Shown here piece by piece: positions 38,044 to 61,551 of a stretch of DNA of 64,000 nucleotides. Source of the DNA: Escherichia phage vB_EcoM_ASO1A; the sequence record MZ726791.1; one strand, 5' to 3'. The notes below the pieces were generated by a model that worked only from the letters and a program-made list of their open reading frames with translations, had not been told where the DNA came from and did no database searches. How positions within the stretch are numbered: the stretch's first letter is position 1; every line of letters begins with the position of its first letter. The translations under genes and the position numbers were made by a program.

Positions 38044-38559
38044 TCAACTTAGTTTTGCAAACTCTCCGTGGAGTTTAATAGCAGCTTCACAGTAAGCTTT
38101 ATGGGCTTCTTCTTCTGTTGTGTACGTCCCTATATGTATAGTCTTACCATTATGGTTAATCTGGGCTATCCACTTACCAGACTTGCTTCTACTTGTACCT
38201 TTTAAGTTTTTTGATGTTCTGGGTTGTCTCCTATTAGACATGTTCTGCTCTTTTGTGGCCTCTCTTAGATTGTCCCAAGCGTTATTCAAACCATCCCCAT
38301 CTTTGTGGTCAATGTGTTTATCAGGCCACTTACCTGTCATCCAGAACCAAGCAATTCGGTGATTACCTGTCCTGTATCCTAAAATCTGTGTGTGCATATA
38401 CACACCAGACCTTGTGCGCTTAATTGCTCCGGCTTGGCTTCCAATGACCACCCTACTACTATGTGGAGGTCTGCCAATCCATGTTAAGACCCCTGTTTCG
38501 GGGTCATAATCTAACCAAGACTTTAACTGTTCATGTGTGAATCCACAATCTCTCATCAA
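38044..38559 (-). CDS. HNH homing endonuclease with AP2-like DNA-binding domain
   Basis: HIDHKDGDGLNNAWDNLR (HNH) and YDPETGVLTW N-terminal motif shared with two paralogs; abuts the DNA polymerase gene. Confidence 0.75.
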   Translation of the reverse strand: MMRDCGFTHEQLKSWLDYDPETGVLTWIGRPPHSSRVVIGSQAGAIKRTRSGVYMHTQILGYRTGNHRIAWFWMTGKWPDKHIDHKDGDGLNNAWDNLREATKEQNMSNRRQPRTSKNLKGTSRSKSGKWIAQINHNGKTIHIGTYTTEEEAHKAYCEAAIKLHGEFAKLS

Positions 38560-41255
38560 TGTACCTCATACCAGCTTTTACCAACCTTACCAGTACCAGT
38601 TACCAGTGTTTCACTCTTTAGTCCTAAGTTCTTAGAGGCTTGCCCGTAATACCAATCAGTGACAGCCTTCACCTCTGCCGTCATACTTTCTGGACATTCC
38701 CAACTCGTCTCATCGTGATAGGAGCACAATAAACGAGCACCTATAGCTGGTTTGCGACCGTTCAACTTCATCAAACCTTCGTCAATCATACGACGGCAAG
38801 CAAGGTTAATTGCCTCGTTCTGAATCTGACTTTCCGAACCCATAAGCAAATAATTCAACAACTTATGTGGAGATTTACACCACAACCAAGCTCCAGCAAC
38901 CTTTACAAAACCCCCTTTAGAGATTGCAGCAGTCTTACCAAACACCTCTTCAAGTGCCTTTTTAGTTGCTTTGTAGTCAGCTTCCAAGTCATCTAGCAGC
39001 TTCTTAATTTTAGGCAAACGAATAAAGTAAGTCTGTTTAGTCAGTGCACCTTCCTGAGTAGTTGCAGCTTTAATCGTCTTAGCAAACTTCTCATCACCTG
39101 CACCGAACAGCAGTGCATAGATACCATTCTTAGCTTTCTTACGGCCTTTGCTAATCTCATGGAGAAGGTTCTCATCCTGAGTAGCTCGACAAGTCAAGAT
39201 ATCCTGCTCATCATTCAAGCTAAAGTAAATACTGTTCAATGTATGTGCATCAGTCCCTGAATAGACAACGTACAGGTCATTCTCAGAGTCATAGCGAAGG
39301 TACTTATCAATCTCTGGGTTCAGGTACTCATCAAAATGTTTGCAGTAATAGCGTCCATCTTCTTGACGAATGAACTCAATTTCTTCTTTACCTTGCGTTA
39401 CCGCTTTGGTGAAGTCTTTATCACCCATAAAGTTACAAAGAAGAACTAGCTGGGCTGAGTTCATATCTACAGAGACAACGTTAGTACCTTCCTCACAAAT
39501 CCATACTGCCCTCATTGGTTCTCCATAGACAGCAGCACCAGACGGTACGTTTACAATACCATACTGTGTCATACGTCCAGTTGAAGTACCAAACACCATT
39601 GCACCAGCACTAAGGCGACCATCAGGACGAATCTGGTTAAGCCAACCTTTTTCATCATCCTTTGAGTTCTCAATAGTTCTGCGTCGGTGCATCAAAGTAT
39701 AGTACTTAGCAATCTTCTGTCCAAGCTCACCTTCAATCGTATCATAAGATGATTCAGTAAGTTTTGGTGAAGTACGGATTAAGCAAGGTTCAAGCAAATC
39801 TGTGTATTTCTTCACAGACCAGTTATGCTCGATGTACTGTACACCTTCATGTTCAACATAACTCAAACCACACCGCTCAACCATTTCCTGCCACTTAGGA
39901 TGCTTTGTAATCATCTTTTTATTGTCTTTGAAACGACAAACTTTGACAGGGCGACCGTCTGAGTCTTTCTTGTAGTTCCAGTCATCTGGAATCCAACCAA
40001 CTGATTTCAAGTAGTCTTTTACAACTGCTACCTGAGTCATACGAGAAACTTCAAACTCAATTGGTGTATATGGTGCATCAATCAATCCTGTGTAGCGACT
40101 TGACTCAAGTTCAAAGTGGTTAACAACGTGGCTGTTATAGTACTTCACAGTTTTGACTGTTTTTACTGGCTTCCAGTCTTTGCATTTCTTACCAATCTTT
40201 GCATTCAACTCATTGCAAATTGCACGAGCATCCTTCATTGCTACAAAACCTTCCTTGTACTCTTCACCAGTTACAGAGTTGGTTGGTGTGTAGCAATTTC
40301 TCTTTTCAATGTTAAAAATCTTTGTAGTTGGCTTACCAAACGGTTTGATTTCGTATGTCTGCATCTCACCGTTACGTACCTGTTGACGATACTTTGTCTT
40401 AGGGTACTTGGTAATTCTCTTCAGTCCATCTGCATGACCGAACGCTTCAACATACTCATTCCAAGCTTTTGCAAACTCTTCTCCAGTGACTTTACCTTTG
40501 GTCTTAATAGTTGGAGGAAGATGTGGTTCAACCTCTGAAGCAAGCTCATTAGTCAACTTGTCAAGTTCCTTTACATGGAACTCCATAAGCTCTTTATCAG
40601 CTTTCCAACCATTGATAGCTTGTTGACTCATCCAGAAAGATGTTTCTTTAGCTCGCATGTAGGTTTCATAAGTGTCTATGCCACACTTCTTAAGCTTGAG
40701 ATACTCATTATCAAGTGCCCGTTTAGTTTTGGCGTTAATACGGATATCTTCTACAACACGAGTGAAGATTTCTGCATTCCACACACCCCAATGTTCAATC
40801 TCTGGTTTACGAACACCAACACGAGCACCCCATGCAGCCAAGCCATGAGCACCTTTATAACCCTTTGGAGTTGGTCTATCCATCCACTGAACACGAGACT
40901 GGATAAGAGAATCCTGAAAGAAATTACTCCACGGCTTACACTTTGGATTATCAAAGTTCCATAAATCCGGTGCAATGTGATTGAAAACCCACCAGTCATA
41001 ACCTAGACCATTATGAATGCAAAGACGTTTTGCCTTTAACGCAAACTCAATACCTTCACGTAAGCCACCCTTAATGTACTTGGTATACTTGTGACCGAGG
41101 ATAGGCTCATCTGTAAAGACCCATACAGGTGGCTCTTCATCGTCAGATTTATAGTCTGCGAAAGCCATTACGTGCACTTTAGTGAACTCAAGGAGTAAAC
41201 CATCAGTTTCTGTATCACCAACTAAATGTAAGTTTTTAAAATCTACGTTTTCCAT
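38556..41255 (-). CDS. DNA polymerase, family A (Pol I-like) with 3'-5' exonuclease domain
   Basis: Exo I motif DTETDGL near N-terminus; ~900 aa; start set to Met11 with AGGGAG SD. Confidence 0.85.
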   Translation of the reverse strand: MENVDFKNLHLVGDTETDGLLLEFTKVHVMAFADYKSDDEEPPVWVFTDEPILGHKYTKYIKGGLREGIEFALKAKRLCIHNGLGYDWWVFNHIAPDLWNFDNPKCKPWSNFFQDSLIQSRVQWMDRPTPKGYKGAHGLAAWGARVGVRKPEIEHWGVWNAEIFTRVVEDIRINAKTKRALDNEYLKLKKCGIDTYETYMRAKETSFWMSQQAINGWKADKELMEFHVKELDKLTNELASEVEPHLPPTIKTKGKVTGEEFAKAWNEYVEAFGHADGLKRITKYPKTKYRQQVRNGEMQTYEIKPFGKPTTKIFNIEKRNCYTPTNSVTGEEYKEGFVAMKDARAICNELNAKIGKKCKDWKPVKTVKTVKYYNSHVVNHFELESSRYTGLIDAPYTPIEFEVSRMTQVAVVKDYLKSVGWIPDDWNYKKDSDGRPVKVCRFKDNKKMITKHPKWQEMVERCGLSYVEHEGVQYIEHNWSVKKYTDLLEPCLIRTSPKLTESSYDTIEGELGQKIAKYYTLMHRRRTIENSKDDEKGWLNQIRPDGRLSAGAMVFGTSTGRMTQYGIVNVPSGAAVYGEPMRAVWICEEGTNVVSVDMNSAQLVLLCNFMGDKDFTKAVTQGKEEIEFIRQEDGRYYCKHFDEYLNPEIDKYLRYDSENDLYVVYSGTDAHTLNSIYFSLNDEQDILTCRATQDENLLHEISKGRKKAKNGIYALLFGAGDEKFAKTIKAATTQEGALTKQTYFIRLPKIKKLLDDLEADYKATKKALEEVFGKTAAISKGGFVKVAGAWLWCKSPHKLLNYLLMGSESQIQNEAINLACRRMIDEGLMKLNGRKPAIGARLLCSYHDETSWECPESMTAEVKAVTDWYYGQASKNLGLKSETLVTGTGKVGKSWYEVH

Positions 41256-41314
41256 TTTTACTCCCTCTAAAATCATTAACCTCATACATTACTGCAAAAA
41301 ATTATAAAAAGCAA

Positions 41315-41344
41315 GTTGACAATGCACTTGACAAGGTGTTAATC
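41315..41344 (+). promoter_or_regulatory. sigma70-like promoter (TTGACA - 18 nt - TAATCT) with conserved spacer CTTGACAAGGTG
   Basis: Read directly in divergent intergenic region 41256-41512. Confidence 0.5.
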
Positions 41345-41512
41345 TTTGCGAAGTGGGTTTTTACTTAAAAGGTTACTTAACAGTTTAACTATACAGATAC
41401 TTTAAAAGTCTTAAAAGATTATTTAATAGCTTTTAAAAAGCTTTAAAGTATAACGTATAGAATACGTTAAGATAAAAGATTAAAACTTAATAGTTACTTA
41501 AAAGAGGCTTAC

Positions 41513-41935
41513 ATGCAGAAAATGTTTGTTCACCCAGACATAGCTGACTTTGTTAGAGCTTTGCAAAAGTTGGAAGAACTTGACATTGCTGCTCAACGGG
41601 AATATGCTCACCATCACAGGAGAATGGTTGATATACAACATGAAATAGAGTTGTCTGAAAACTATGAAGATGACTTAAAATGCTCTGTATTTGAGCATAT
41701 GAAAGATGTTGCTACAGCGAGACGTAAAGCTAAAGACACAGTTGCTTTACTAGATTCTCTTAAAAAGAGGTTGCAAAGTGGTACAGACCTGTGTAATCTA
41801 GCGTCACTGATTAACGATGTTGAAACTTCTTGGGATAGGCACTATTATCCACGTTCTGAAAAGACACTTGACTTTTCTTCATCCGAAAACTTAAAATGTT
41901 CTAGAAAGAAACTTAACCAACTGAGAGAGAAATAA
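41513..41935 (+). CDS. hypothetical early protein
   Basis: 140 aa, AAAGAGG SD. Confidence 0.55.
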   Translation: MQKMFVHPDIADFVRALQKLEELDIAAQREYAHHHRRMVDIQHEIELSENYEDDLKCSVFEHMKDVATARRKAKDTVALLDSLKKRLQSGTDLCNLASLINDVETSWDRHYYPRSEKTLDFSSSENLKCSRKKLNQLREK

Positions 41936-41936
41936 T

Positions 41937-42737
41937 ATGAATATCGATGTAGAAAAGATGCTTGAAGAGAAAGGTATTGACGAAGCATTTTTAATCAATG
42001 CCGTAGAAAGCATGGCTATGATTCTTCGTGGTAACAACTACACAGAACAGTTTATGCCTGCAAGCTATAACTTGCCTGAAGACAAGTCTGATAACGGTGC
42101 TTTTGCAGAACAGGTTAACATGATGCTTTGCGACAAAACACTTGCTTTAGCATCTATCGTTGTAGGTGTTGATGCCCTTGCAGAGTTCATTTTTTATGAG
42201 ATGCAGAAAAATGATTATATTGCCATGACCACTGAAGAAAAAGACTTGCTACTACTCGCAGGTAACGATGAACTAATTGACCTGTTAATTTCATCAACTA
42301 GTGCTGTTATGGCTGCTCTTGAGAAGCGCATGGAAGAAAAACTTTCACGATATGAAAAACTTGATTGGGGTGTAGAAGAATTAAACCCACGAATCAAAGA
42401 AATTATCCAGCAAACTAAAGAGTCTTTGGAAGAAGCTGTTGAAAATGACTCTGTAGCTGATATAGAACCTCTTCAGGTGAAAGTTGCACTGATGATTCCA
42501 GCTATCTCTACGATGATGAATATCGTTGCACTAATCCAACTTTCACAGATGATGGGTGTAAGTATTGAGTTCATTGAAGAGATGACTGGTGGCGTTAGTA
42601 TGCAAGCAATAAATGATGTTTTGGTGAACATTGGTGCTTCAATCATTGAAGAGAAACTACGCATTAACTTCGGTGATGATTTTGTGAAGCAAATCTCAGC
42701 TATGGCTGAAAAAGAGTATGCTGAGCAACTGCACTAA
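41937..42737 (+). CDS. hypothetical highly acidic early protein
   Basis: 266 aa, Glu/Asp-rich; terminator-like hairpin downstream. Confidence 0.55.
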   Translation: MNIDVEKMLEEKGIDEAFLINAVESMAMILRGNNYTEQFMPASYNLPEDKSDNGAFAEQVNMMLCDKTLALASIVVGVDALAEFIFYEMQKNDYIAMTTEEKDLLLLAGNDELIDLLISSTSAVMAALEKRMEEKLSRYEKLDWGVEELNPRIKEIIQQTKESLEEAVENDSVADIEPLQVKVALMIPAISTMMNIVALIQLSQMMGVSIEFIEEMTGGVSMQAINDVLVNIGASIIEEKLRINFGDDFVKQISAMAEKEYAEQLH

Positions 42738-42798
42738 GTCTTTATAAATCTTACAAGCCTCCTTAGTTGGGGGCTTTTTAGTAATTAATGGAGATAAA

Positions 42799-43542
42799 AT
42801 GAGTAATATTATCGCATTTACTGGAAAGGCACGTTCTGGAAAAGACACCTCATGTTCTATTGTGAAGAACATCTTAGAGGATGAGCACGGCTACAATGTT
42901 GCTGTAATGGCCTTTGCAGACAACCTTAAACTGTCTGCATCAAAGATATTTGACCTGACTTGGAATGACCTGTATGGTGAAACTAAAGAGACTCCACAGG
43001 TATTTGACTTGTCATATCCTGAACTGATGTTTAAAGTTACGGAAGCTATGGAGTTCACCTTCAGAGATGAACGTTACCATATGGACTTCAAGCTTATGTC
43101 AGAGTTAACCGGACGATTAATCATGGAGCTTAAGAAGGTTGCTAAACCAACTCTATTGACACGTCTGGGGTTTAGCAAAAAGTATAAATTCTCATCAAGA
43201 CAAATTCAACAGATTTGGGGCACTGAAGTTGTCCGTAAAGTAATGGGAGACAAGTTCTGGTCTAAAGACCTTGAAAAAAGAATGGTTAGATTCTATGAAA
43301 GTTGCTCACTTAGAAATCAATATGGTTTTGTCTTAATCAGTGATTTAAGATTTGACTCTGAAGCTGAGTGGCTGAGTAGATTTGCACACCAAACTATTGA
43401 AGTAAAAAGAGACAATGTGGATAAGATTTCATCACACGTTTCAGAAAATGGGCTATCCACCAAATATGAGCGTGACATTATTCATAATAATGGTACTCTT
43501 ACAGACCTTGAGAACAAGCTAAGAGCCATCATTAAAGTTTAA
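42799..43542 (+). CDS. deoxynucleoside monophosphate kinase (T4 gp1-like)
   Basis: P-loop FTGKARSGKDT resembles T4 dNMP kinase SGVKRSGKDT. Confidence 0.7.
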   Translation: MSNIIAFTGKARSGKDTSCSIVKNILEDEHGYNVAVMAFADNLKLSASKIFDLTWNDLYGETKETPQVFDLSYPELMFKVTEAMEFTFRDERYHMDFKLMSELTGRLIMELKKVAKPTLLTRLGFSKKYKFSSRQIQQIWGTEVVRKVMGDKFWSKDLEKRMVRFYESCSLRNQYGFVLISDLRFDSEAEWLSRFAHQTIEVKRDNVDKISSHVSENGLSTKYERDIIHNNGTLTDLENKLRAIIKV

Positions 43543-43550
43543 AAGAGAGA

Positions 43551-43751
43551 ATGAAGATGAGAGTAAAAGACAATTTTAAAGTTATTGACCACCGTTTAGT
43601 GGAACTCTCATCTCTTTCCAATGAGGTAATGATTGAACGTCTTAAGAGAGTTGAATCACGAAGGAAAGAGATTGCAGATGAAATTCATGAACTGGACAAG
43701 ATTGAAAATGGATTGAAGGCAGAACTACAACGAAGAGGTGCTAATGTCTAA
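43551..43751 (+). CDS. hypothetical small protein
   Basis: 66 aa. Confidence 0.4.
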   Translation: MKMRVKDNFKVIDHRLVELSSLSNEVMIERLKRVESRRKEIADEIHELDKIENGLKAELQRRGANV

Positions 43752-45729
43752 AGGTCGTAAATTGAAAGAGGCTGGTCAGTTTGTTGGTCATTGTGCATGT
43801 CCACGTTGTGGTTCATCAGATGCTGGTTCAATCTATCATCATGACGATGATTCTTATTCGATGACTTGCTTTAGTTGTAACAAAGGTTTCCCAGAGTGGG
43901 ATTTTGATAAAGGACAAATCGTGAGCACTTATTCTACTGGTTCAGACAATAAAAACCGTACTTTCCGTGGGATGGATTTAGACGATGTAAAAGACAACCT
44001 TGAAGCAATGGACTTAAAGGACAGGAAGATTCCTGCAAAAGTTCTTGAGCGTTTGGGTATCAAGGTTGACATTGATAGTGACGGTGAAATTGATGCGCAT
44101 TTCTACCCAACTTACAAACGCAATGAAGATGGCAAGCTAGAGCATGTTGGCTACCGTGTTCGTCACCGTTACCCAGAAGACCATCCAAAAGAGCACCTAC
44201 GCGGTAAGTTAAAAGACTTTTCTGGTGGTGTTGGAGATATTAAAGGTGAACTGGCAATGTTCGGTTCATGGATTGCTCCAGAAGGTGGTAACCGCCTATT
44301 CATCTGGGAAGGTGAGATGGAATGTGCGACAGCAATCTATATGACTTCTCTTGCGATTAAGGACAAGTCTCGTCGTAAGAATTACTGTCACGTATCTGTT
44401 CCATCAGGTGCAAACATCAAGTCTATCAAAGATAACTATCAGTACATTACATCATTTGATGAAATTTACTTGTGCTTTGATAACGATGAAGCAGGTGCTA
44501 AAGCCACTAAAGAGGCTGCTGGTATCCTACCTATTGAGAAGGTTCGTTTATTCCAGTATCCAGAAGGTGTAAAAGACCTTAATGAATGGTGGACAAAGTT
44601 CTATAAAGAGAAAGATACAGTTCTGGAAGGATTTAAGCAGCGTATCTACAATGCACCTCGTTACTGCCCTGCTGGTATCAAGAACTTTGCAGACGGTTTT
44701 GATGCAATGAAGAATCGTGGTCAGATTCCATTGATTCCTTTTCCAGAATCTTTCGGAGACTTGAACAGGCTAACTTACGGTGGTTATGGTTTAGGTGAGA
44801 TTACGACTATTGCAGCACCATCTTCAGTAGGTAAGTCAGCTTACACTCGTGAGATGATTTATTCAGCTTGGAAAGAAACTGATTATAATATCGGTGTAAT
44901 TCCTGTAGAAGATACCTATGAAGAGTTGATGGAAATGCTCTGTGCAATCCACCTGAGCAAACAGATTTCTGAGATTCCTTATGATGAACGGGATTGGGAT
45001 GAATTAAAGGGAGCACACGCAGAGCTTTCAAAAGGTCGTCGCATCCATATCGTTGACCATCAAGGGGCGATTGACCAAGATAACCTGCTGGAGTTTGTTG
45101 ACTATCTTGTTAACAGTTTAGACTGTAAGATTATTATTCTTGACCCTATTACATTGGCTCTGTCACGTTCTGATACGGATGAAGAGGAAGTCTTGTCTGA
45201 ACTATTGCGTCGTTGCAAACGCTACCAGTATGCACAGGTAAACGTTTGTCACGTTCGTAAGAGTGCAGGTGGTCAGAAAGCTAACTCTGAAGGTGGAGAT
45301 ATCTCTGAAGAGGATATTAAGGGTTCTGGTGCGTATTTCCAGATTTCCATGAACAACATTCTGTTAATGCGTAACAAGGTTGACCCAGACCCTGTTAAGA
45401 AAAACTTGACAAAAATCAAGTTAACTAAGTGTCGTCGTCATGGTAAGTCAACAGGTATTGCTGGTCATACTTGGTACAATCCAGACACAGGACGTCTTAT
45501 CAAAGCTTCTGGATGTGGTGTTGACATTGATGGTGCAGCAGAAAATATTCGTCAACAGTTTGGTATTGGTGAAGCTGAAGACCATTATGACGATTCCCTA
45601 CCACATTATGAGGATGAAGTATTTGACCGTGAAACTGGTGAAGTTTATACTGAAGAACAACGTCAAAGTTCAACAATTCCACCAGTCGTAAGTGAGGATG
45701 CAGATGACTGCCCATTCGAAACTGAGTGA
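43744..45729 (+). CDS. DNA primase-helicase (T7 gp4-like)
   Basis: N-terminal zinc ribbon CACPRCGSSD ... CFSC, Walker A in C-terminal half; track start GTG moved to ATG. Confidence 0.8.
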   Translation: MSKGRKLKEAGQFVGHCACPRCGSSDAGSIYHHDDDSYSMTCFSCNKGFPEWDFDKGQIVSTYSTGSDNKNRTFRGMDLDDVKDNLEAMDLKDRKIPAKVLERLGIKVDIDSDGEIDAHFYPTYKRNEDGKLEHVGYRVRHRYPEDHPKEHLRGKLKDFSGGVGDIKGELAMFGSWIAPEGGNRLFIWEGEMECATAIYMTSLAIKDKSRRKNYCHVSVPSGANIKSIKDNYQYITSFDEIYLCFDNDEAGAKATKEAAGILPIEKVRLFQYPEGVKDLNEWWTKFYKEKDTVLEGFKQRIYNAPRYCPAGIKNFADGFDAMKNRGQIPLIPFPESFGDLNRLTYGGYGLGEITTIAAPSSVGKSAYTREMIYSAWKETDYNIGVIPVEDTYEELMEMLCAIHLSKQISEIPYDERDWDELKGAHAELSKGRRIHIVDHQGAIDQDNLLEFVDYLVNSLDCKIIILDPITLALSRSDTDEEEVLSELLRRCKRYQYAQVNVCHVRKSAGGQKANSEGGDISEEDIKGSGAYFQISMNNILLMRNKVDPDPVKKNLTKIKLTKCRRHGKSTGIAGHTWYNPDTGRLIKASGCGVDIDGAAENIRQQFGIGEAEDHYDDSLPHYEDEVFDRETGEVYTEEQRQSSTIPPVVSEDADDCPFETE

Positions 45730-45981
45730 TAGTTACAGAAGAGAGGGGTTCACACCCTTCTTTGAAGAAAAAAGTTTAAATGAATTTCAGGAAGAGTGTT
45801 TGACAAAGGTTGATAGGTTCTATAGAATGCTCTACATGAAATGTGATGGGGGTGTTGAGGTAGAAGAAAAGTTCCATCACAGTATGATAACAGTCACTAT
45901 TACTATACCTCGACATAATATTGGTTGGCTGTTTATAATTAAAGAAAATGTGTTTGAATATCAAGTATATCGGAGAATATC

Positions 45982-47123: not shown

Positions 47124-48170
47124 ATGGAGAAGTACACATTAACAAAACTTCCCGATTCAGTTACACATGTTTTTATTGACTCTGACAGTATTGCCTACAA
47201 AGGTGCTTGTGTAGTTGAGAAAGCAAAATATAAATATGTCAATAAACTCACAGCAGAAGAATCTGAGCCATTTGATAATGCGAAAGATGCTGCAAGATGG
47301 TTAGCAGACCAGAGAATCCTTGTGGAAGAACTTGGCCTGACATTTGATGAAGATGAATGGGAAAGACAGACTTGGAAAGAAGCTAAGAGTGAAAAAGAAG
47401 CTATCATGGCTACTCAACAGGTGCTTCAGGAATGGCTTAAGGTTGTTGGGAAAGAAAGAACTTGGGTAGGTTATTTAACAGAGAAAGGTGTACATAAACA
47501 TAAAGACATTAAAGGTCTTGAGCACCAATATCAAGGTAACCGTAAAGATGCTGTCACACCAACACACTTAGTTGCTTGTCGTGAGTATCTTCTGTCAAGA
47601 CCAGAGTTCAAATTGATTCTTGATGGATTTGAAGCTGACTCTATCGTTATTGCTAAAGCTGAAAAGATGGGAAAAAAGGCTGCCTTGATGAGTATTGATA
47701 AAGACCTTCGCCAAGCTGAAGGGACTTACTGCATTGATATGACCTATGAAAAGTCGCCTTTGATTTTTATTGCTGATAACAACGTTGGTGAAATTTGGGA
47801 TTGTCCAATAAAATCGACACCAAAAGCTAAGAAGGCAGTTGGGGTAGGTTTTAAATTTCTTTGTTACCAAGCTGTGGCTGGTGATAATGCTGATAATTAT
47901 TTTGGTTTAAAGGGCGTTGGTAAGGCTACTGTAATGAAAGCCCTTGAAGGTAAAACTACTTATAAAGAGTGTCTTGATGCTATCTATGAACTTTATGCTA
48001 AGAAAGAGTCCTATACTTATGTCTCGTGGGATGGTCAAACAATTACCAGAACACCTTTAGAGTTAATGCAGCAACACTTTTTCTTAGCTTATCAGGAAAG
48101 AAACAAGAAAGACGATTTCACTTTTGATAAGTATGGGTGGACACCAAATGTTAACTCAACAAACTCTTAA
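47124..48170 (+). CDS. 5'-3' exonuclease / flap endonuclease
   Basis: FEADSIVIAKAEK region and helix-hairpin-helix-like FGLKGVGKATVMKAL. Confidence 0.65.
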   Translation: MEKYTLTKLPDSVTHVFIDSDSIAYKGACVVEKAKYKYVNKLTAEESEPFDNAKDAARWLADQRILVEELGLTFDEDEWERQTWKEAKSEKEAIMATQQVLQEWLKVVGKERTWVGYLTEKGVHKHKDIKGLEHQYQGNRKDAVTPTHLVACREYLLSRPEFKLILDGFEADSIVIAKAEKMGKKAALMSIDKDLRQAEGTYCIDMTYEKSPLIFIADNNVGEIWDCPIKSTPKAKKAVGVGFKFLCYQAVAGDNADNYFGLKGVGKATVMKALEGKTTYKECLDAIYELYAKKESYTYVSWDGQTITRTPLELMQQHFFLAYQERNKKDDFTFDKYGWTPNVNSTNS

Positions 48171-48648
48171 AGAATACCTGCACTATGACCCCGAAACAGG
48201 GGTCTTTACTTGGTTAGTTGGTAGAAAAGGTAAGGCCAAAGCTGGCTCAGTAGCAGGTCTTAAACATCATAGTGGTTATATCTATATAAAACTCTTCGGA
48301 AAAAGATATGCAGCACACAGACTGGCATTCTTGTATATGAAAGGATACCTCCCAAAATTTGTTGACCACAAAAATGGTATCAGGCACGACAACTGGTTCG
48401 ACAATTTGAGAGAGTGTAGCAGGTCAGACAACAACTGCAATGCAGTCAAAAGAAAAGATAATAAGTCTGGTGTGAAGGGTGTATATTACCACAAGCAAAG
48501 AGGTAGATGGGCTGCACAAGTCAAGCATAATAAAGTATGCTACCATCTAGGTTTATTTGACTCTATCACTGAGGCTGAATCAGTTGTCAAAAAGAAAAGA
48601 GAAGAACTCCATAGAGAGTTTACAAATCACGGAGAAGCTCATGAATGA
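48148..48648 (+). CDS. HNH homing endonuclease with AP2-like domain (paralog 2)
   Basis: YDPETGVFTW motif; VDHKNGIRHDNWFDNLRECSRSDN; track start TTG at 48124 moved to in-frame ATG. Confidence 0.7.
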   Translation: MLTQQTLKEYLHYDPETGVFTWLVGRKGKAKAGSVAGLKHHSGYIYIKLFGKRYAAHRLAFLYMKGYLPKFVDHKNGIRHDNWFDNLRECSRSDNNCNAVKRKDNKSGVKGVYYHKQRGRWAAQVKHNKVCYHLGLFDSITEAESVVKKKREELHREFTNHGEAHE

Positions 48649-49145
48649 TTAAAGTTAAAGGTTTTGGGAGTTGCCCCACTTATGGTCACTGGATTTCACT
48701 ATGTGGTGAAGTTGACCCAGCAAAGCACTTTGGTTTTGTCTACCTAGTGTACTGCAAAAAGACTGGACAGTACTATTTGGGTAAGAAACAGCTTAACAGT
48801 GTGACAAAAAGAAAAGTTGCTGGGAAGACTCGGAAGAAGGTAGTCACTAAGGAGAGTGATTGGATGACTTACGAAACCTCTTCTGAGTATATTAAAAAAG
48901 ATATTGAAAGCTTTGGAAAAGAATCTTTTGATTTTTACATTATTCAAACCTACTACACAAAAGGTGGTCTAGTTTATGGTGAAGCAAACCTTCAACATAA
49001 ATTCGATGTAATGACAAAAAGGATTGACTCTAAGCTCAGACTCTTCTACAATGCCAATATTGCAGCAATTAAGTTTATTACTAAAGAAACTTATGAAGAT
49101 GCTGAAAAAAGAATCCATAAGGTAATGAAAGCAAACTGTGCTTGA
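48645..49145 (+). CDS. GIY-YIG-like homing endonuclease (putative)
   Basis: FVYLVYCKKTGQYYLGKK matches GIY-(10 aa)-YIG spacing; tandem with HNH gene. Confidence 0.5.
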   Translation: MIKVKGFGSCPTYGHWISLCGEVDPAKHFGFVYLVYCKKTGQYYLGKKQLNSVTKRKVAGKTRKKVVTKESDWMTYETSSEYIKKDIESFGKESFDFYIIQTYYTKGGLVYGEANLQHKFDVMTKRIDSKLRLFYNANIAAIKFITKETYEDAEKRIHKVMKANCA

Positions 49146-50810: not shown

Positions 50811-50821
50811 AGGATTCAAAA

Positions 50822-54681: not shown

Positions 54682-54880
54682 ACGCATTTGGGAAGGTTTG
54701 GTTGTTGATGCACCAGCTATTGTGATTGGTATGCTTATCGTTAACCTATTTACTGACTTTGAACAAGGTTCATTGTTTGGAGCCATGTTACTATGGGTTA
54801 TCTTCGAAATATTAGAGATACAGTTAGGTATCACTGAAAAACTAAGAGAACTCTTTGCGAAGTTTTCTAAAAAGATTTAA
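54674..54880 (+). CDS. small membrane protein
   Basis: 68 aa, hydrophobic. Confidence 0.4.
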   Translation: MLKRIWEGLVVDAPAIVIGMLIVNLFTDFEQGSLFGAMLLWVIFEILEIQLGITEKLRELFAKFSKKI

Positions 54881-54884
54881 AATG

Positions 54885-54912
54885 AAAGGGTCTCTTCGGA
54901 GACCTTTTTAGC
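54885..54912 (+). terminator. rho-independent terminator (GGTCTC-TTCG-GAGACC + T-run)
   Basis: Read directly. Confidence 0.6.
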
Positions 54913-54928
54913 ATGTAAAGGGGCAATA

Positions 54929-57073
54929 ATGAACAAAGTACAGATTATTAAAAAGAATGGCTCACTTGAAGAACCTGATATCAAAAAAGTTTTAGCAGCA
55001 GTCACAAAGTCAGCTAACAGAGTTGGTTATAAAGAGCTTCCACCAGATGTTACTCAAGCTCTTGAGTCAGCATTTATGAGGATTCTGGTAAAGTCCACTA
55101 AGCAGAATAATTTGCTAATTTCGGTAAATGATATTCACAGTATTGTTGAGGGTGCTTTGGCAGAAGTCAATCACGAGATTTATGAGTCTTACTCAACATA
55201 TAGAAATTACCGTAAAGAGGTTGCTCAAAATTGGGATGAACTCTACCAGAAGACTAAAGATACACTCTTCTTAGGTGACCGAGAAAACGCTAATTTTGAC
55301 AGCAGTTTAATTTCTACAAAAGGTTCAATTATTCGTGGTTATCTGACTAAAGAAATCTTTAAACAGTACCATTTAACACCAGAGGAACTTGAAGCCATTG
55401 AAAAAGGGTTTATCTACATCCATGATTTAAGAGACCTAATTTTTGGTGGTATCAACTGTTGCCTGTTTGACATTGGTAAAGTCCTGAAAGGTGGCTTTGA
55501 AATGTCTGGCATCGAATATTGTGAACCGAAGTCTGTACTGTCAGCCTTACAGGTTATTGGTGATGTAGTTCTTTCAGCAACTGCACAGCAATTTGGTGGC
55601 TTTACTTTAGCAGAGATTGATAAGGTACTTGTACCGTATGCTAAGAAGTCTCTACACTATCATGCTGAGAAAGCAGCATCTTATGGTATTCCTAAAGAAC
55701 ATTACCACAATTATGTCATGGAGCAGCTACAGATTGAACTGACTCAGGGTTTCCAGTCACTTGAAATGAAACTAAACACTGTACCTTGTAGTCGTGGGGA
55801 TTTTGCATTCACAACTTTGACATTCGGGTTACTTGACTCAGATATGTCCAATGAAGATAACCGACTGCAATACATGATTGCAAGTACTCTCCTAGATGTT
55901 CGTATGAATGGACAAGGTAAGAGCAAGAAGCCTGTTGTATTCCCTAAACTGGTTTATATTTATGACCAGAAGAGACACGATGAGAATATCTGTCAAGGCC
56001 ACCTGTACAGTAAAGCTATTGAGTGTTGCTCTAAAGCAATGTATCCAGACTTCTTAAGTGTATCTGGTCATGGTGCTGTAGCAGAGGCTTTTGAGCGTTC
56101 TGGTAAGGTTATTTCACCAATGGGTTGCAGAGCTTTCTTGTCTCCATATCTTAATGAGGATGGGGAAGAGTTCTACGTTGGTCGTGCTAACATTGGTGCT
56201 GTATCTTTGAACTTACCAATGATTTACCAGTATTCTAAAGAGAATGGATTAGACTTCTGGACAGAACTTGATAAATATCTCGAAATGATTCGTAGCTTCC
56301 ATAAGAAACGCTACGAAATGATTGCTAATATGCCAGCAAGTTCTAACCCTCTTGCATTCACACAAGGTGGTCTGTACAAAGGAACTAAGAAACCTACTGA
56401 CAAGGTTGGTTGGGATATTGTGAAGTCCTTCACAGCTTCTTTTGGTGTTACTGCGCTTGATGAGTTGTCTGTTCTTGCTGAAGGTAAACGACTTCATGAA
56501 GTTGGAAGCTATAGTTTTGCATATGATGTTCTGGCATACATCAACATGAAAACCGAAGAGTTTAAAAATGAAGATGGCTTCTTATATGCCGTCTATGGTA
56601 CTCCAGCAGAATCACTATGTGGGACTCAGCTAAAACAGTTCAGAGATATGTTTGGGGTTATCAAAGGTGTTTCCGATAAGGAATACTTTACAAACAGTTT
56701 CCATATGAATGTTGCAGCAGACATCTCGCCATTTGAGAAGCAGGACTTAGAAGAGCCATTCTTCCATATCTGTAGAGGCGGTAGAATCCAGTATGTAAGA
56801 GTAGCTAACCCAGAAAACTTAACAGCACTTAAAAGTTGTATTACAAGAGGGATGTTGAAAGGTTTCTATCAGGGGCTTAACTTTGACTTAGCAATCTGTG
56901 AACATTGTGGTAACAGACCAAAGGCTGATGTTGAAGAATGTGAGGTTTGCCATTCACATGATATCTCTGTGATTAACAGGGTGTGTGGGTATCTTGGATG
57001 GACTAAGATTAAAGGTGAATCCCGAATGAACGATGCAAAAATCGCTGAGATTCGTGATAGAGTCTCTATGTAA
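54929..57073 (+). CDS. nrdD: anaerobic ribonucleoside-triphosphate reductase (class III)
   Basis: 714 aa; C-terminal zinc ribbon CEHCG ... CEVCHSH and glycyl-radical region RVCGYLG. Confidence 0.85.
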   Translation: MNKVQIIKKNGSLEEPDIKKVLAAVTKSANRVGYKELPPDVTQALESAFMRILVKSTKQNNLLISVNDIHSIVEGALAEVNHEIYESYSTYRNYRKEVAQNWDELYQKTKDTLFLGDRENANFDSSLISTKGSIIRGYLTKEIFKQYHLTPEELEAIEKGFIYIHDLRDLIFGGINCCLFDIGKVLKGGFEMSGIEYCEPKSVLSALQVIGDVVLSATAQQFGGFTLAEIDKVLVPYAKKSLHYHAEKAASYGIPKEHYHNYVMEQLQIELTQGFQSLEMKLNTVPCSRGDFAFTTLTFGLLDSDMSNEDNRLQYMIASTLLDVRMNGQGKSKKPVVFPKLVYIYDQKRHDENICQGHLYSKAIECCSKAMYPDFLSVSGHGAVAEAFERSGKVISPMGCRAFLSPYLNEDGEEFYVGRANIGAVSLNLPMIYQYSKENGLDFWTELDKYLEMIRSFHKKRYEMIANMPASSNPLAFTQGGLYKGTKKPTDKVGWDIVKSFTASFGVTALDELSVLAEGKRLHEVGSYSFAYDVLAYINMKTEEFKNEDGFLYAVYGTPAESLCGTQLKQFRDMFGVIKGVSDKEYFTNSFHMNVAADISPFEKQDLEEPFFHICRGGRIQYVRVANPENLTALKSCITRGMLKGFYQGLNFDLAICEHCGNRPKADVEECEVCHSHDISVINRVCGYLGWTKIKGESRMNDAKIAEIRDRVSM

Positions 57074-57125
57074 AACTTGACAAGGTGATGTGGGTCTTGA
57101 TAGGCTTACATCACCTTTTTTTTTT
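57067..57125 (+). promoter_or_regulatory. promoter (TTGACA - 18 nt - TAGGCT) superimposed on terminator hairpin (GGTGATGT ... ACATCACC + T11)
   Basis: Read directly after nrdD stop. Confidence 0.5.
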
Positions 57126-57232
57126 TATTGGATGTTAGATATGGCAGAGAACATCATTGGCCTATTCATAGGTTCTGTCTTACTAGGGTTCTTTTTAGGA
57201 CTCTCTTATTGTGAATTAAGAGGCAAGTTAAA

Positions 57233-57433
57233 ATGTTTAAAATATCAAAATCGTTGATATACATTCTCCACATTCTAATCTTCTTCTTTGGGGTTAGTGT
57301 TATGGTATGGGGTTTTTCAGACCCACAGTGGAGTTTATCATATCATGGTCAGATGGATTTATGGTCATGCTTCAAACCATTTTTAGGGTTAGCCATAGCA
57401 TTCAGTGTATTGCCAACTAAGGTGAAATTATGA
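57233..57433 (+). CDS. small membrane protein
   Basis: 66 aa, AAGAGG SD, hydrophobic. Confidence 0.45.
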   Translation: MFKISKSLIYILHILIFFFGVSVMVWGFSDPQWSLSYHGQMDLWSCFKPFLGLAIAFSVLPTKVKL

Positions 57434-57825
57434 TTAAGTTGAACAAAAAACAGTTAGAGTGGATTAAAGATTATGCCTCAGAGTGCGGCTCTTGCGAAAA
57501 GAATCACGTAAGATATTCAACATTCCATGCGACCTTCACATTGTACATCAGCGACAACGTTCTAAGTGATTCCGTAGAAGATGGTGTAGCGTTACCTAAT
57601 GAATTACTTGACAAATTAGCTGTAGTTACTGGAACGTGGAGTGAAGAAGATGGTCACGAACTATCTGACAATGTTGTCTTCTACAGTCTTGAAAATATTA
57701 TGAATCCAGAGTACATTATGTTAATGACTTGTGCACAAGACTGTGTGCCATTACAAAACTTCATTAAAGAGCATTGTGAAGAGTTTATTACTAAACAGGT
57801 TCCTTGTCAGGTGGTGTTTGAATGA
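57430..57825 (+). CDS. hypothetical protein
   Basis: 131 aa, coupled. Confidence 0.45.
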   Translation: MIKLNKKQLEWIKDYASECGSCEKNHVRYSTFHATFTLYISDNVLSDSVEDGVALPNELLDKLAVVTGTWSEEDGHELSDNVVFYSLENIMNPEYIMLMTCAQDCVPLQNFIKEHCEEFITKQVPCQVVFE

Positions 57826-58121
57826 GTAAAACAATTCGAAGAAAAGGTTTAAAGAACGTTCACGGACTCTATGAGTGGAGGAATGAGGTACGTAACAGAG
57901 AAAATGCTTCAGATGTCTACTTCCATTCTGATATGATGTCCAGAAAAGGTGGCTCTTATGACTTTACAAGTCAGCCTTGTAGAGAGATTAAGCAGGCTAC
58001 TAAACGTCTTACAAGAACACAAATCAGTCAGCTTTCTAAGACATCCTTCTTAGATGAAGATTTTGACATTGACAGCAAGTCTCCAAAGAAAGCTGCTCAG
58101 AGCACTTATATGTATTGGTGA
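57822..58121 (+). CDS. hypothetical protein
   Basis: 99 aa, coupled. Confidence 0.45.
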   Translation: MSKTIRRKGLKNVHGLYEWRNEVRNRENASDVYFHSDMMSRKGGSYDFTSQPCREIKQATKRLTRTQISQLSKTSFLDEDFDIDSKSPKKAAQSTYMYW

Positions 58122-58130
58122 GGTAACTAG

Positions 58131-58616
58131 ATGAATTACATGGAGATTAGACCATTTGACACAGCTAATGGTGAAGGGGTTCGTGTAAGCCTCTTCGTAG
58201 CTGGTTGTAAACATCACTGTGAAGGCTGCTTTAACAGGGAGTCTTGGAAGTTTAATGCTGGTAAAGAGTTCACTTATGCAAACCTCTATGGCATCATTAA
58301 ATTAATGGATGATAATGCCGTCAGTGGGTTGTCAATACTTGGTGGAGAACCTCTGGATGATAGAAATATTCAAGAGGTTACCAACATATGCAAACGTATT
58401 AAAACCGTTTACCCAGAAAAATCTATCTGGCTATGGACAGGTTTTCAGTTACACGAAAAAATTCACCTAGATGTGATGAAATATGTTGACGTGGTGATTG
58501 ATGGTAAGTATGATTCATCTAAACCAACAGTTAAACCATATCGTGGTTCTGATAACCAAAACCTCTGGAGAAAAGAGTATGGATGGCAAGGCGATTGTCA
58601 ATGGAGAGCCGAGTAA
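58131..58616 (+). CDS. nrdG: anaerobic ribonucleotide reductase activating protein (radical SAM)
   Basis: 161 aa; AGCKHHCEGCFN cysteine cluster. Confidence 0.75.
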   Translation: MNYMEIRPFDTANGEGVRVSLFVAGCKHHCEGCFNRESWKFNAGKEFTYANLYGIIKLMDDNAVSGLSILGGEPLDDRNIQEVTNICKRIKTVYPEKSIWLWTGFQLHEKIHLDVMKYVDVVIDGKYDSSKPTVKPYRGSDNQNLWRKEYGWQGDCQWRAE

Positions 58617-58740
58617 GTCTCGTCGTAAAGTAGGTTATCGGTAAAGGGCACTTTACAATGTTCTACAGAACAAACTTAACCGTTTGTGTCACTGAAAAAG
58701 AACTTAAAACATTTTGTGAAAAGATTGAGAGAGATATGAA

Positions 58741-58998
58741 ATGGGACTCTGGAATAGTTTTAAATCAAAAGTAAAAGCAGCACTAGCTTCATTAGGTATG
58801 CTCACTGGTGTTGATGTGACTCACCTTATGCAGAACTTCAATATGGATGAGAAGCTGGCTAATGAGATTATGAAAAGTATCTATGTAGGCCGTGGTAAAG
58901 GTGGTAAGAAACAAGCCCACCGTCCGTCTGGTGCAGCAGCTATTAAACGAGCAGCTAAGAAAGCTCGTAACCGTAAACGTAATAAGAAGGCTAAATAA
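58741..58998 (+). CDS. hypothetical protein with basic C-terminal tail
   Basis: 85 aa. Confidence 0.4.
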   Translation: MGLWNSFKSKVKAALASLGMLTGVDVTHLMQNFNMDEKLANEIMKSIYVGRGKGGKKQAHRPSGAAAIKRAAKKARNRKRNKKAK

Positions 58999-59000
58999 TC

Positions 59001-59321
59001 ATGAGCAAAGTTTATAACACTCGCAAATTACAGATTTTCGTACTGTGCCAGTTTATGGCTAAAGAATATAACTTCTACTATTGCGGCACAGGTTTTATTA
59101 GCGACGATGATGGTTCATACCTACCATTTAAAGAAGCTGTGAAGCTCTTTAATGAAGAGAAAAGCTCTAAGAAAGATATTGAAAAGGTTAAGCTAACCTA
59201 CAGCAAGAAAGATAAGAAGATTATCTGCCTAGATAACTTTGTGAAAGTTACTGGAGAAGCAAAAGAGTTTATGGATGAGAGTGAGATTTCATTCACAAGC
59301 ATCTTGAAAGTAGCTCAGTAA
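59001..59321 (+). CDS. hypothetical protein
   Basis: 106 aa; terminator hairpin downstream (GGGAAC ... GTTCCC + T-run, about 59335-59368). Confidence 0.45.
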   Translation: MSKVYNTRKLQIFVLCQFMAKEYNFYYCGTGFISDDDGSYLPFKEAVKLFNEEKSSKKDIEKVKLTYSKKDKKIICLDNFVKVTGEAKEFMDESEISFTSILKVAQ

Positions 59322-59371
59322 ACAGATACTATAAGGGAACTGTAAAGGTTCCCTTTTATTTTGGAGATGAT

Positions 59372-59887
59372 ATGTATCTGTCAAACCTAAAACGTTCTGC
59401 TGCAATGTCAGTTCTAAGACTCAGCTTTGATGAGCGTCAAGAGTTTATAGACTCCCACAAATATGACCCTTCAAATTCTAATCACATGGTTCTTTGGAAT
59501 CGTGATAACTTCCGTGAAAGAGCACTTGTCCGTTATTACCCACACTACACAATAGATAACCTGTATGAATGGTGTGTTGTGAAGAACACCATTGCAACAC
59601 TGAACAATCTTTGCAGGTATACGGGTAAGCAAACATTTACATTAGGTCATCACAAACCTGTTACAAAAGGTGGTGAACATCACTGTGCAAACTGGTTTAT
59701 CCAAACTAAAACTGATAACCAGAAGCAAGGAGATAGCCTCCTAAGTATCCCCAAGATGACCTATGAAGAGCAAGAGAAATATATCAAAAATAATATGCCA
59801 GATGTGCTTGACAACAACTATACAGATTTGGCAATATCTCTCCTGTTGAAGTTCGAGACAGTTTATAGGGCAACTTATAATGGCTAA
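59372..59887 (+). CDS. HNH-motif protein (putative nuclease)
   Basis: GHHKPVTKGGEHHCANWF...DN resembles HNH core; GGAGATGA SD. Confidence 0.4.
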   Translation: MYLSNLKRSAAMSVLRLSFDERQEFIDSHKYDPSNSNHMVLWNRDNFRERALVRYYPHYTIDNLYEWCVVKNTIATLNNLCRYTGKQTFTLGHHKPVTKGGEHHCANWFIQTKTDNQKQGDSLLSIPKMTYEEQEKYIKNNMPDVLDNNYTDLAISLLLKFETVYRATYNG

Positions 59888-60158
59888 AGAAAAGTGGGAG
59901 ATTTTACCATTAGTCAGTGAAGGAGGTAATGGTTGTGAAATGTACATGATACGTGGTCATGTTCCAGAGCCAATTGCACTTGAGATGGTAAACAACTTTA
60001 CAGATGGTTCTTACAAAGACTTAGGCGAACCAACTGTCAAGCAACAATGGGTAAAGCCTGTACCAGACAGCACAGGTAACTGTAGTGTACTTTACCACGT
60101 TGTAGACCCTGTAAAATGCAAATCTGCAATGGCAGTAACAAACGTAACTTTTGATTGA
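59880..60158 (+). CDS. hypothetical protein
   Basis: 92 aa. Confidence 0.4.
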   Translation: MAKEKWEILPLVSEGGNGCEMYMIRGHVPEPIALEMVNNFTDGSYKDLGEPTVKQQWVKPVPDSTGNCSVLYHVVDPVKCKSAMAVTNVTFD

Positions 60159-60169
60159 GAGAGAAAACT

Positions 60170-61051
60170 ATGAAAACATCTATCCGTGTCACAATTCATT
60201 CACCGACTAAAGGAACTCATGAAGAAGAGTTTAACATCATCCAATTCCCTTCTGGTGAGATTGGTGGCCACTTTTCACAAGAGCTTGTTGATTTTACTGC
60301 TTATGCAGCATCATCTATTAACAATGTGGTTATGATTGTAAAGGGTTATGACAAAGACACACTGTTTGCTGTGGCACTGGCTAAAGAAGCAATTGACGAT
60401 TTAGTTCCTCATGATTATGCCCTGAAGACTGTCATTTTTTACTACTTGCCAAATGCACGATACGACCGTCACATGTTTAAAGGCGACGCAGCAGCTTTAA
60501 AGGTTTTTGCTAAACAGGTAAATGCAATGGGATTTGGTGCAGTCTGTGCAGTTGACCCTCACAGTTACGTTCCAGATAACCTGTTTAACTGCTTCCAGAG
60601 TATTCCTCAAAAGGAGATTGCAGTCCACTATGCAAATGACCCACTGGTTGATTACTTAGTAGCCCCAGATGCAGGTGCTGCTAAGAAGGTTGCAGAGACC
60701 GCTAAAGAGGTGGGTAAACCATATATCACAATGTCTAAAGTACGCAACCTTAAGACTGGTGAAATTACTGGTATGCGAATCCTTGATGATGTTGATTTGA
60801 CAGATAAAACCGTCATGATTCTGGATGATATCTGTGATGGTGGTCGAACCTTCATAGAAGCAGCGAAACATCTTCGTGAAGCAGGTGCAAAACGTGTGGA
60901 ACTTTATGTAACACATGGTATCTTCTCTAAAGATGTTGAAAACCTTCTTGACAATGGTATCGACCATATTTACACTACAAACTCTTTAGGTGAAGCTAAA
61001 GACCGTGGCTTAACACATTATAGTCAAGTTACTGTAGCAAATTTGGATTAG
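60170..61051 (+). CDS. ribose-phosphate pyrophosphokinase (PRPP synthetase)-family protein; possible ADPR-pyrophosphate synthetase
   Basis: PRPP-binding loop TVMILDDICDGGRTF; track start TTG at 60155 moved to ATG after GAGAGAGAAA. Confidence 0.7.
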   Translation: MKTSIRVTIHSPTKGTHEEEFNIIQFPSGEIGGHFSQELVDFTAYAASSINNVVMIVKGYDKDTLFAVALAKEAIDDLVPHDYALKTVIFYYLPNARYDRHMFKGDAAALKVFAKQVNAMGFGAVCAVDPHSYVPDNLFNCFQSIPQKEIAVHYANDPLVDYLVAPDAGAAKKVAETAKEVGKPYITMSKVRNLKTGEITGMRILDDVDLTDKTVMILDDICDGGRTFIEAAKHLREAGAKRVELYVTHGIFSKDVENLLDNGIDHIYTTNSLGEAKDRGLTHYSQVTVANLD

Positions 61052-61059
61052 GTATTAAA

Positions 61060-61551
61060 ATGGATAAGGGTTACTTCGAAAAATACCTAATATACGAACC
61101 AGAGACAGGTTTACTAATTTGGAAAGTAACCCTTTGCAATACCGCTATTGCTGGTAACGTTGCTGGCACAAGGTCTAAGAAGGGTTATATCCAAGTTCAG
61201 ATAAATAAGAAAAGGTACTATGCGCATAATATCGCATGGATTCTATCTGGAGGTGATATACCAAGTGGATATGAGATAGACCACATAGACCTTGACAAAA
61301 CAAATAATAGGCTGGAAAACTTAAGACTGAGTACAAAGTCACAAAACCAAAGGAATAGAGGTCTACAAAAGAACAATAAAACTGGCGTGAAGGGCGTAAG
61401 TGTGTGTCCACAGACAGGTCTTTATAAGGCAAGGGTGATGCTTTATCATAAAGAATACTTTTGCGGAAGATTTAAAACGCTAGAAGAAGCTAAAGAAGCT
61501 GTAATTAGAAAACGAATAGAACTTCATGGTAAGTTTGCAAGACATAACTAA
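61060..61551 (+). CDS. HNH homing endonuclease with AP2-like domain (paralog 3)
   Basis: YEPETGLLIW, HIDLDKTNNRLENLR; inserted between the PRPP-synthetase-like and NAMPT-like genes. Confidence 0.7.
   Translation: MDKGYFEKYLIYEPETGLLIWKVTLCNTAIAGNVAGTRSKKGYIQVQINKKRYYAHNIAWILSGGDIPSGYEIDHIDLDKTNNRLENLRLSTKSQNQRNRGLQKNNKTGVKGVSVCPQTGLYKARVMLYHKEYFCGRFKTLEEAKEAVIRKRIELHGKFARHN

Follow-up and report, generated by a model that had tools for sequence, protein, structure and literature searches.

Free-standing HNH-AP2 homing endonuclease genes at three sites, and two conserved nuclease-like genes, in a Felix O1-like Escherichia phage

HNH endonuclease genes are a known feature of Felix O1-like phages. 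Six were described in Felix O1, without intein association (Whichard et al., 2010; PMC3185647), and Felix O1-like phages differ from one another mainly where homing endonuclease genes (HEGs) have been inserted or deleted, either between conserved genes or inside them (Moreno Switt et al., 2013; PMC3728262). A split nrdD has been described as well (Bardina et al., 2016; PMC4837284). In other phages, an HNN-AP2 class of free-standing endonucleases has been defined (Lee et al., 2007, citing Magnani et al., 2004; PMC2248197), and nuclease genes have been found at the edges of exchanged genetic segments (Barth et al., 2023; PMC10448857). Here we analyse a 64,000-nt stretch of Escherichia phage vB_EcoM_ASO1A (MZ726791.1; hereafter the window, positions counted from its first letter). 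A sequence-only reading of this DNA had picked out five homing-endonuclease-like genes, namely three HNH-AP2 paralogs (HNH1, HNH2 and HNH3), a GIY-YIG-like gene in tandem with the second, and an open reading frame (ORF) with an HNH motif at 59372-59887. We conclude that the three HNH-AP2 genes are real, intact and mobile HEGs of the kind already described in Felix O1-like phages.

The closest described systems are HNH genes at the same three genomic sites in Felix O1 (ORF218, ORF257, ORF305) and in Escherichia phage vB_EcoM_ASO1B (ASO1B_094, _105, _125). The protein at site 3 of Felix O1 is 100% identical to that of the window and the protein at site 2 is 95% identical; the site-1 allele differs, with 39.5% protein identity and only the last 23 codons in common. 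The proteins resemble the HNN-AP2 endonucleases of Xanthomonas phages Xp10, OP1 and Xop411 (PMC2248197) in having an HNN-type His-Me domain at the N-terminus that lacks CxxC zinc pairs, boxes of conservation around D-H, DN(R/W), NLR and (Q/E)N, and several dispersed copies in each genome; the C-terminus is AP2-like, with a score above the Pfam cut-off in HNH1 only. Unlike the Xanthomonas phages, where truncated and decayed copies occur in varying places, the three genes here are intact and are situated at fixed inter-gene junctions common to the genus.

The Seg and Mob proteins of T4 are free-standing homing endonucleases. SegG brings about marker exclusion and co-conversion, and mobC/mobE are replaced by segH/hef. 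The genes of the window share with this system an intron-less location between conserved genes, a sporadic distribution, the occupation of one slot by different endonuclease genes, and co-conversion of flanking markers (read here from sequences alone). They differ in belonging to another phage lineage and to the HNH_3-AP2 enzyme class, and are known here through sequence comparison.

The window was identified as a Felix O1-like myophage of the genus Felixounavirus by megablast of positions 38000-62000, which returned 270 related phage records, nearly all of them Felix O1-like myophages from Escherichia, Salmonella, Shigella and Citrobacter. The best match is ASO1B (MZ726792), with 100% identity across the 24 kb of 38000-62000. 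In 1-13000 the identity falls to 99.3% and in 13001-38000 to 96.6%, so that the complete window is distinct from ASO1B, which also has ~1.6 kb more. Because the two are identical only in 38000-62000 and less similar elsewhere, we consider the window a mosaic sister of ASO1B. In the ASO1B annotation, ASO1B_094 is labelled 'HNH homing endonuclease', _105 and _125 'putative HNH endonuclease', _106 'GIY-YIG homing endonuclease' and _122 'hypothetical protein'. The neighbouring genes are annotated there as DNA polymerase, T7 gp6-like exonuclease (exodeoxyribonuclease), PRPP synthetase and NAMPT, in agreement with the neighbours (DNA polymerase, FEN exonuclease, PRPP-synthetase-like, NAMPT-like) that had been assigned from the letters of the window.

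All five ORFs were recovered at the positions given for them (Table 1). The three HNH proteins were said to be paralogs with a common N-terminal motif, and this is the case: the motif reads YDPETGVLTW in HNH1, YDPETGVFTW in HNH2 and YEPETGLLIW in HNH3. Each pair is 36-38% identical in BLASTP (E 1e-24 to 5e-32), and the proteins can be aligned end to end, C-terminus included. The proposed HNH core was borne out for all three by Pfam HNH_3 (PF13392; 53.9, 47.9 and 70.5 bits for HNH1, HNH2 and HNH3, against a cut-off of 24.8). The proposed AP2-like C-terminus was borne out in part; of the Pfam AP2 scores (38.1, 31.3 and 17.8 bits in the same order) only that of HNH1 passes the cut-off of 33.3. 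The trio falls in phrog_99 (HNH endonuclease) of PHROGs, with E 3.7e-64 for HNH1, and NCBIfam gave no match for any of the five flagged proteins. No further paralogs of the five were found by tblastn across the whole window, and a Pfam search with ten ORFs chosen from 599-7609 and 31757-35246 identified no more endonuclease genes upstream.

HNH1 is a protein of 171 aa, with the annotated start at ATG 38556 rather than TTG 38559. For HNH2 the start may be TTG 48124, as in GenBank, or ATG 48148; the latter has a better Shine-Dalgarno-like sequence upstream (GGGTGGA) and is the more likely start. The Rfam matches in the window are all tRNAs, with no intron family at the gathering threshold, thus the HNH-AP2 genes are free-standing. 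They are separate ORFs between intact neighbours, as expected from the description of them as intron-less.

Residues D84, H85, N93, N97, L98, R99 and N109 are invariant in an alignment of the three genes with five divergent alleles of relatives. These D-H, N, N-L-R and N residues are the catalytic and metal-binding positions of the HNN-type His-Me finger, and all are kept in the trio. Comparison with same-allele relatives shows no internal stops, and ratios of non-synonymous to synonymous substitution (dN/dS) range from 0 to 0.24. The ratio is 0-0.03 for HNH1 against five relatives (9 synonymous and 0 non-synonymous changes in the comparison with LF82P5), 0.19-0.24 for HNH2 and 0.09-0.14 for HNH3, the Felix O1 copy of which has 2 changes, both synonymous. 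Loss of the catalytic HNH residues, which would have marked decayed genes, is therefore not seen in any of the three, and judged from their sequences they appear catalytically intact and under purifying selection.

Table 1. Positions and strands of the genes, hairpins and divergent tracts discussed in the text.
Feature	Position in window	Strand	Description
HNH1	38044-38559	-	HNH_3 + AP2 homing endonuclease gene, free-standing, adjoins DNA polymerase gene
HNH2	48124/48148-48648	+	HNH_3 + AP2-like, free-standing, at exonuclease/GIY-YIG gene junction
HNH3	61060-61551	+	HNH_3 + AP2-like, free-standing, between prs (PRPP synthetase) and nadV (NAMPT)
HNH1 3' end	38044-38113	-	last 70 nt, 23 codons, PEEAHKAYCEAAIKLHGEFAKLS
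polA 3' third	38560-39540	-	mosaic divergent tract beside HNH1; from mismatch profile and dS
Exonuclease gene 3' end	47580-48145	+	divergent tract left of HNH2; sharp edge ~47580
GIY-YIG gene 5' end	48637-48780	+	divergent tract right of HNH2
Spacer before nadV and first 44 codons of nadV	61556-61700	+	tract differing only in HEG-less genomes
Hairpin GACCCC-GAAACA-GGGGTC	38488-38505	-	in HNH1, codons D-P-E-T-G-V
Hairpin GACCCC-GAAACA-GGGGTC	48187-48204	+	in HNH2, same codons; also called terminator-like by a simple scan
GIY-YIG-domain-only protein, 166 aa	48645-49145	+	conserved core gene, replication module
171-aa conserved protein	59372-59887	+	core gene; HNH-like (His-Me finger) motif GHHKPVTKGGEHHCANWFIQTKTDNQ

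Each of the HNH-AP2 genes is absent from roughly three quarters or more of the close relatives. Record counts for the three genes were drawn from ~250-300 matching phage records: HNH1 is full length in 49, HNH2 is held by 58-63 among roughly 300, and HNH3 is present in 61 of 254, the others having a 429-nt empty site instead of 901 nt. Ten relatives were fetched and aligned to positions 36000-64000 for comparison of presence, absence and flanks, and in these, clean and precise empty sites were identified for each of the three genes. Site 1, at the end of polA, is empty in VpaE1. LF82P9, LF82P3, AN17P8 and TH10 have an empty site 2, where the exonuclease gene meets the GIY-YIG gene; the presence/absence difference is 491 nt (48146-48636). 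Site 3, in the spacer between prs and nadV, is empty in LF82P5, LF82P3 and NRG857CP1 (468-nt difference).

The insertions are closely fitted to the neighbouring genes. HNH1 abuts the DNA polymerase gene and overlaps its stop codon. The exonuclease stop overlaps the GIY-YIG start in HEG-less genomes (…TGTATGAATGAAGATTAA…), and HNH2 is placed exactly in this junction, overlapping the end of the exonuclease gene with its own stop overlapping the GIY-YIG start. The HEG-less form of the prs-nadV spacer, which corresponds to 61052-61568, contains a hairpin resembling a terminator (GGGGCTT..AAGCCCC, then TTTT). Genomes that carry the HEG, the window included, have HNH3 in place of this spacer and its hairpin. 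Thus, insertion of HNH3 may change read-through into nadV.

Sites 1 and 2 are occupied in some relatives by other HNH-AP2 alleles that are 39-60% identical in protein. At site 1, AN17P8 (49%) and NRG857CP1 (44%) carry such alleles in addition to Felix O1, and at site 2 they are found in VpaE1 and LF110P4 (59-60%) and in NRG857CP1 (55%). The final 70 nt of HNH1 are 100% identical in four site-1 alleles, the remainder of the gene being ~50% identical. Many records match HNH1 only at query positions 1-69/70 (93-100%), under a gene annotated as 'HNH endonuclease'. The identical 3' end in otherwise divergent alleles indicates a recombination boundary inside the gene, and allele replacement.

Divergence of the flanks was measured as mismatches per 60-nt bin against the relatives, along with synonymous divergence (dS). 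Sharply bounded divergent tracts were identified beside all three HNH-AP2 genes, where a check for gene conversion tracts had been suggested. The polA tract has a sharp outer edge at ~39540 in Felix O1, AN17P8 and VpaE1, and an inner sub-block at 38580-38820; dS against the same three phages is ~2.0, compared with 0.11-0.16 in the 5' part of polA. The flanks of site 2 are ~20% different in HEG-less genomes, and close to those of the window in genomes with allele A or B. The exonuclease tract has 9-19 mismatches per 60 nt in the former compared with 0-6 in the latter. Its dS is 1.8-3.1, the 5' part of the exonuclease gene having 0.08-0.19. On the other side of HNH2 there are 12-17 mismatches per 60 nt up to ~48780, after which the background of 1-6 is reached. 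LF82P5 has the window-type HNH2 with the other type of right-hand flank, indicating a recombination breakpoint at the 3' edge of HNH2. The nadV tract shows 11-20 mismatches per 60 nt in the three genomes with an empty site 3 (LF82P5, LF82P3 and NRG857CP1) and 1-6 in the seven carriers, and its dS is 0.8-1.2, against a background of 0.11-0.30.

Overall, synonymous divergence in the tracts is ~10-fold over background, the remainder of the same genes being at 0.1-0.25. Because dS is near saturation, we take the flanks to derive from much more distant lineages. Such foreign flanks would be expected if they travel with the homing gene, and the pattern at the three sites fits intron-less homing with co-conversion.

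We predict that in a mixed infection each enzyme cuts or nicks its own locus in a related phage where that locus is HEG-less. The likely targets would be the 3' end of polA, the junction between the exonuclease and GIY-YIG genes, and the spacer between prs and nadV together with the 5' end of nadV. With the HEG-carrying genome used as repair template, the gene would be copied in along with a stretch of its flanks. The outcome would be the patterns observed here: sporadic distribution, clean empty sites, allele replacement at the same site, and sharply bounded foreign flanks. HNH1-3 are probably translated from operon transcripts, since obvious promoters of their own were not identified and the genes overlap or abut their neighbours. 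The sequence-only reading had proposed active intron-less homing and local recombination for the whole block. For HNH1-3 we infer active homing from the comparative patterns (sporadic presence, empty sites, tracts); the proposal is not supported for the GIY-YIG gene or for ORF 59372-59887.

HNH1 and HNH2 have in common a perfect 18-nt hairpin within the codons of the N-terminal motif. It occurs twice in the window, compared with 0.02 occurrences expected by chance, and it is not in HNH3. Of the seven alleles at sites 1 and 2, six have the exact hairpin, and in the remaining one, the site-1 allele of Felix O1, the stem is kept and the loop is changed, although protein identity among the hairpin-bearing alleles is only 34-60%. 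The same four stem codons are used in 7/7 alleles; of the 11 other invariant Gly/Ala/Pro/Leu columns, 10 use 2-4 codons. The predicted RNA fold has an energy of -12.8 to -14.6 kcal/mol (z -2.4 to -3.4). A search of IMG/VR gave 26 hairpin matches, most on contigs of 80-94 kb, which corresponds to the Felix O1 genome size (the contigs being known by size alone). This conservation points to a constraint at the nucleotide level. That the hairpin is a functional element of these homing genes (an attenuator or translation brake, a self-repression operator bound by AP2, or a short patch of homology) is a tentative idea that we regard as possible rather than probable. Were it true, an attenuator or brake would keep the nuclease at a low level, and a homology patch would let alleles swap the core that determines specificity.

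HNH1-3 are very probably free-standing HNH(HNN)-AP2 homing genes of Felixounavirus, and the other two flagged genes fixed core genes. Several observations count against this interpretation. The AP2 similarity of HNH2 and HNH3 is under the Pfam cut-off. Sequence searches against solved structures gave chance-level matches only, for HNH3 as well as for the GIY-YIG protein and ORF 59372-59887, and neither published cleavage sites nor experimental cleavage data for the Felix O1 HNH-AP2 enzymes were found in the literature. The region is mosaic in general, with 15% of the 60-nt bins divergent. For this reason a permutation test, which asked how often a divergent bin would lie beside every one of three randomly placed 500-nt sites, is suggestive but only borderline (P = 0.057). 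In addition, 8 HEG-less genomes were identified with the window-type exonuclease flank (in a spread sample, 60 listed of 304 matched). Strict linkage of the exonuclease flank type to the presence of HNH2 was thus rejected. In these genomes the gene may have been lost later, or the empty allele may be resistant, but plain recombination would fit as well. The borderline permutation result and these HEG-less genomes, together with the occurrence of mosaic blocks at many places without endonuclease genes, lend something to the view that the HNH-AP2 genes are passengers that no longer home and are spread by ordinary homologous recombination, their divergent flanks being coincidental. A useless passenger, however, is hard to square with strong purifying selection and intact catalytic residues. 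Nor does coincidence sit well with tract edges that fall at the edges of the endonuclease genes, with a divergent nadV tract in 3/3 HEG-less genomes and 0/7 carriers at site 3, or with the same two junctions being taken repeatedly by different alleles. We consider passengers very improbable.

The HNH-AP2 proteins could instead have been co-opted for a phage function, such as competitor exclusion, nicking, or AP2-mediated regulation of transcription, and be kept for that rather than for their own spread. The dN/dS of HNH1 is as low as that of the DNA polymerase gene, and the genes lie inside operons for replication and nucleotide metabolism with overlapping stop and start codons. The GC-rich palindrome described above, conserved at the nucleotide level in most alleles, could be a protein-binding site. 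Against this, each gene is missing from about three quarters or more of close relatives, thus no HNH-AP2 gene is needed for growth. Co-option also overlaps with homing, because excluding a co-infecting relative is what a free-standing homing endonuclease does itself. As a separate explanation we find co-option very improbable, and homing remains the preferred interpretation for HNH1-3.

The remaining two flagged genes are most plausibly nuclease-like core genes that are fixed, and not active homing elements. A GIY-YIG-like gene in tandem with HNH2 is indeed present. Its product matches Pfam SegE_GIY-YIG (PF19835) with 95.1 bits (E 4.8e-27), and the catalytic Tyr, Tyr, Glu and Asn are kept, with Y33, Y44-x-G46, E113 and Y135-N136 invariant; the canonical Arg could not be assigned. 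In an AlphaFold2 (AF2) model (pLDDT 71), the top Foldseek match in the PDB is the catalytic domain of I-TevI, with a non-significant E of 0.34. The protein ends ~27 residues past the catalytic domain, and the C-terminal extension of its 270-aa relative P0029, which we take to include a NUMOD3-like GPNNPMFGK, is missing. Thus, while the catalytic domain is like that of SegE-type enzymes, the protein is unlike them in apparently having no C-terminal DNA-binding domain, and the gene is unlike theirs in being conserved and syntenic across the Ounavirinae rather than sporadic.

The GIY-YIG gene was identified in 10/10 of the fetched relatives (94-100% aa identity; dN/dS 0.03-0.09) and at the same place in every sampled Felixounavirus, also in Citrobacter and Shigella relatives. 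The same gene order, with the GIY-YIG gene behind the exonuclease gene, is seen in Erwinia phage FIfi106 (Kolesnikvirus) and in Yersinia phage P778. We considered the gene as a sporadic homing element and rejected this on its presence in all sampled relatives, its synteny and its missing DNA-binding domain. Speculatively, the protein and the neighbouring exonuclease may act together to break down or recombine DNA.

For ORF 59372-59887, the ORF and an HNH-like motif exist as proposed. No Pfam match was found. The protein has a full-length match to phrog_3500 (unknown function; E 8e-93) and weak matches to two HNH PHROGs (phrog_2214, E 2.2e-6; the other, E 0.005). The core of the motif (H93, GG100-101, H103, N107 and N116) is kept down to 22% identity, H93, GG100-101 and N107 being invariant and N116 almost invariant, and the AF2 model (pLDDT 75) has strands at 89-93 and 108-112 and a helix at 113-120, a beta-beta-alpha arrangement at the motif. 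The top Foldseek match is an HNH nickase, with a non-significant E of 1.7. Alignment of the family to the HNH-AP2 alignment by hhalign showed no relation, and fold and profile comparisons in general fell short of significance. An exhaustive search identified a small family, 17 clusters among 1.84 billion representatives, and none of the 17 has Pfam HNH above cut-off. The ORF is in 10/10 of the fetched relatives (90-100% identity; dN/dS 0.05-0.17). Of 281 matching records, 240 contain the ORF at full length, and on this ground we rejected it as a sporadic homing element. Both this ORF and the GIY-YIG gene may descend from homing endonucleases and now be ordinary, vertically inherited phage genes.

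The HNH homing genes of the window are already known and ordinary, and the multi-allele sites and near-saturated flanks are incremental detail. As discoveries they carry little weight, given the 2010 and 2013 publications and the identical sequence already annotated in GenBank. Sorting of the five flagged genes into three mobile and two fixed is of practical value for users of phage typing and biocontrol. The comparison also locates the likely target regions and the parts of polA, the exonuclease gene and nadV that are foreign imports; those parts are best left out of phylogenies. With ~270 genomes and several alleles per site, Felixounavirus would be a convenient natural system for the study of allele competition among homing endonucleases.

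Other differences between the window and its relatives were also identified. VpaE1 has a 780-nt insert with an EndoVII-like ORF that splits polA at ~39112 and that is not in the window. In VpaE1, TH10, LF110P4 and NRG857CP1, an insert of 575-581 nt follows nrdD (~57066); it is annotated in VpaE1 as a MobE-like HNH gene, and the window is without it. The extra ~1.6 kb of ASO1B is missing from the window at ~35246-35669, upstream of the DNA ligase gene. It was considered as another homing gene and rejected, as it corresponds to the hypothetical genes ASO1B_085 and _086, which have no nuclease annotation. ORF 57822-58121 (99 aa) is variably present, with 246-269 nt missing in Felix O1, NRG857CP1 and TH10; its ASO1B counterpart (ASO1B_118) is a 'hypothetical protein' with no nuclease annotation.

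Mosaic blocks away from endonuclease genes are found, for example, at 42120-42299, 58620-58919 and 60360-60539. Around ORF 58741-58998, positions 58500-59000 form a divergent block with 71-80% identity in six relatives, and another, at 60140-60620 in the 5' half of prs, has 69-85% identity in Felix O1 and TH10. Thus, mosaicism extends beyond the endonuclease sites. At the other end of the window, 23 tRNA genes form a cluster (2633-7781) in which ORFs of unknown function (DUF7338, DUF7217) are scattered.

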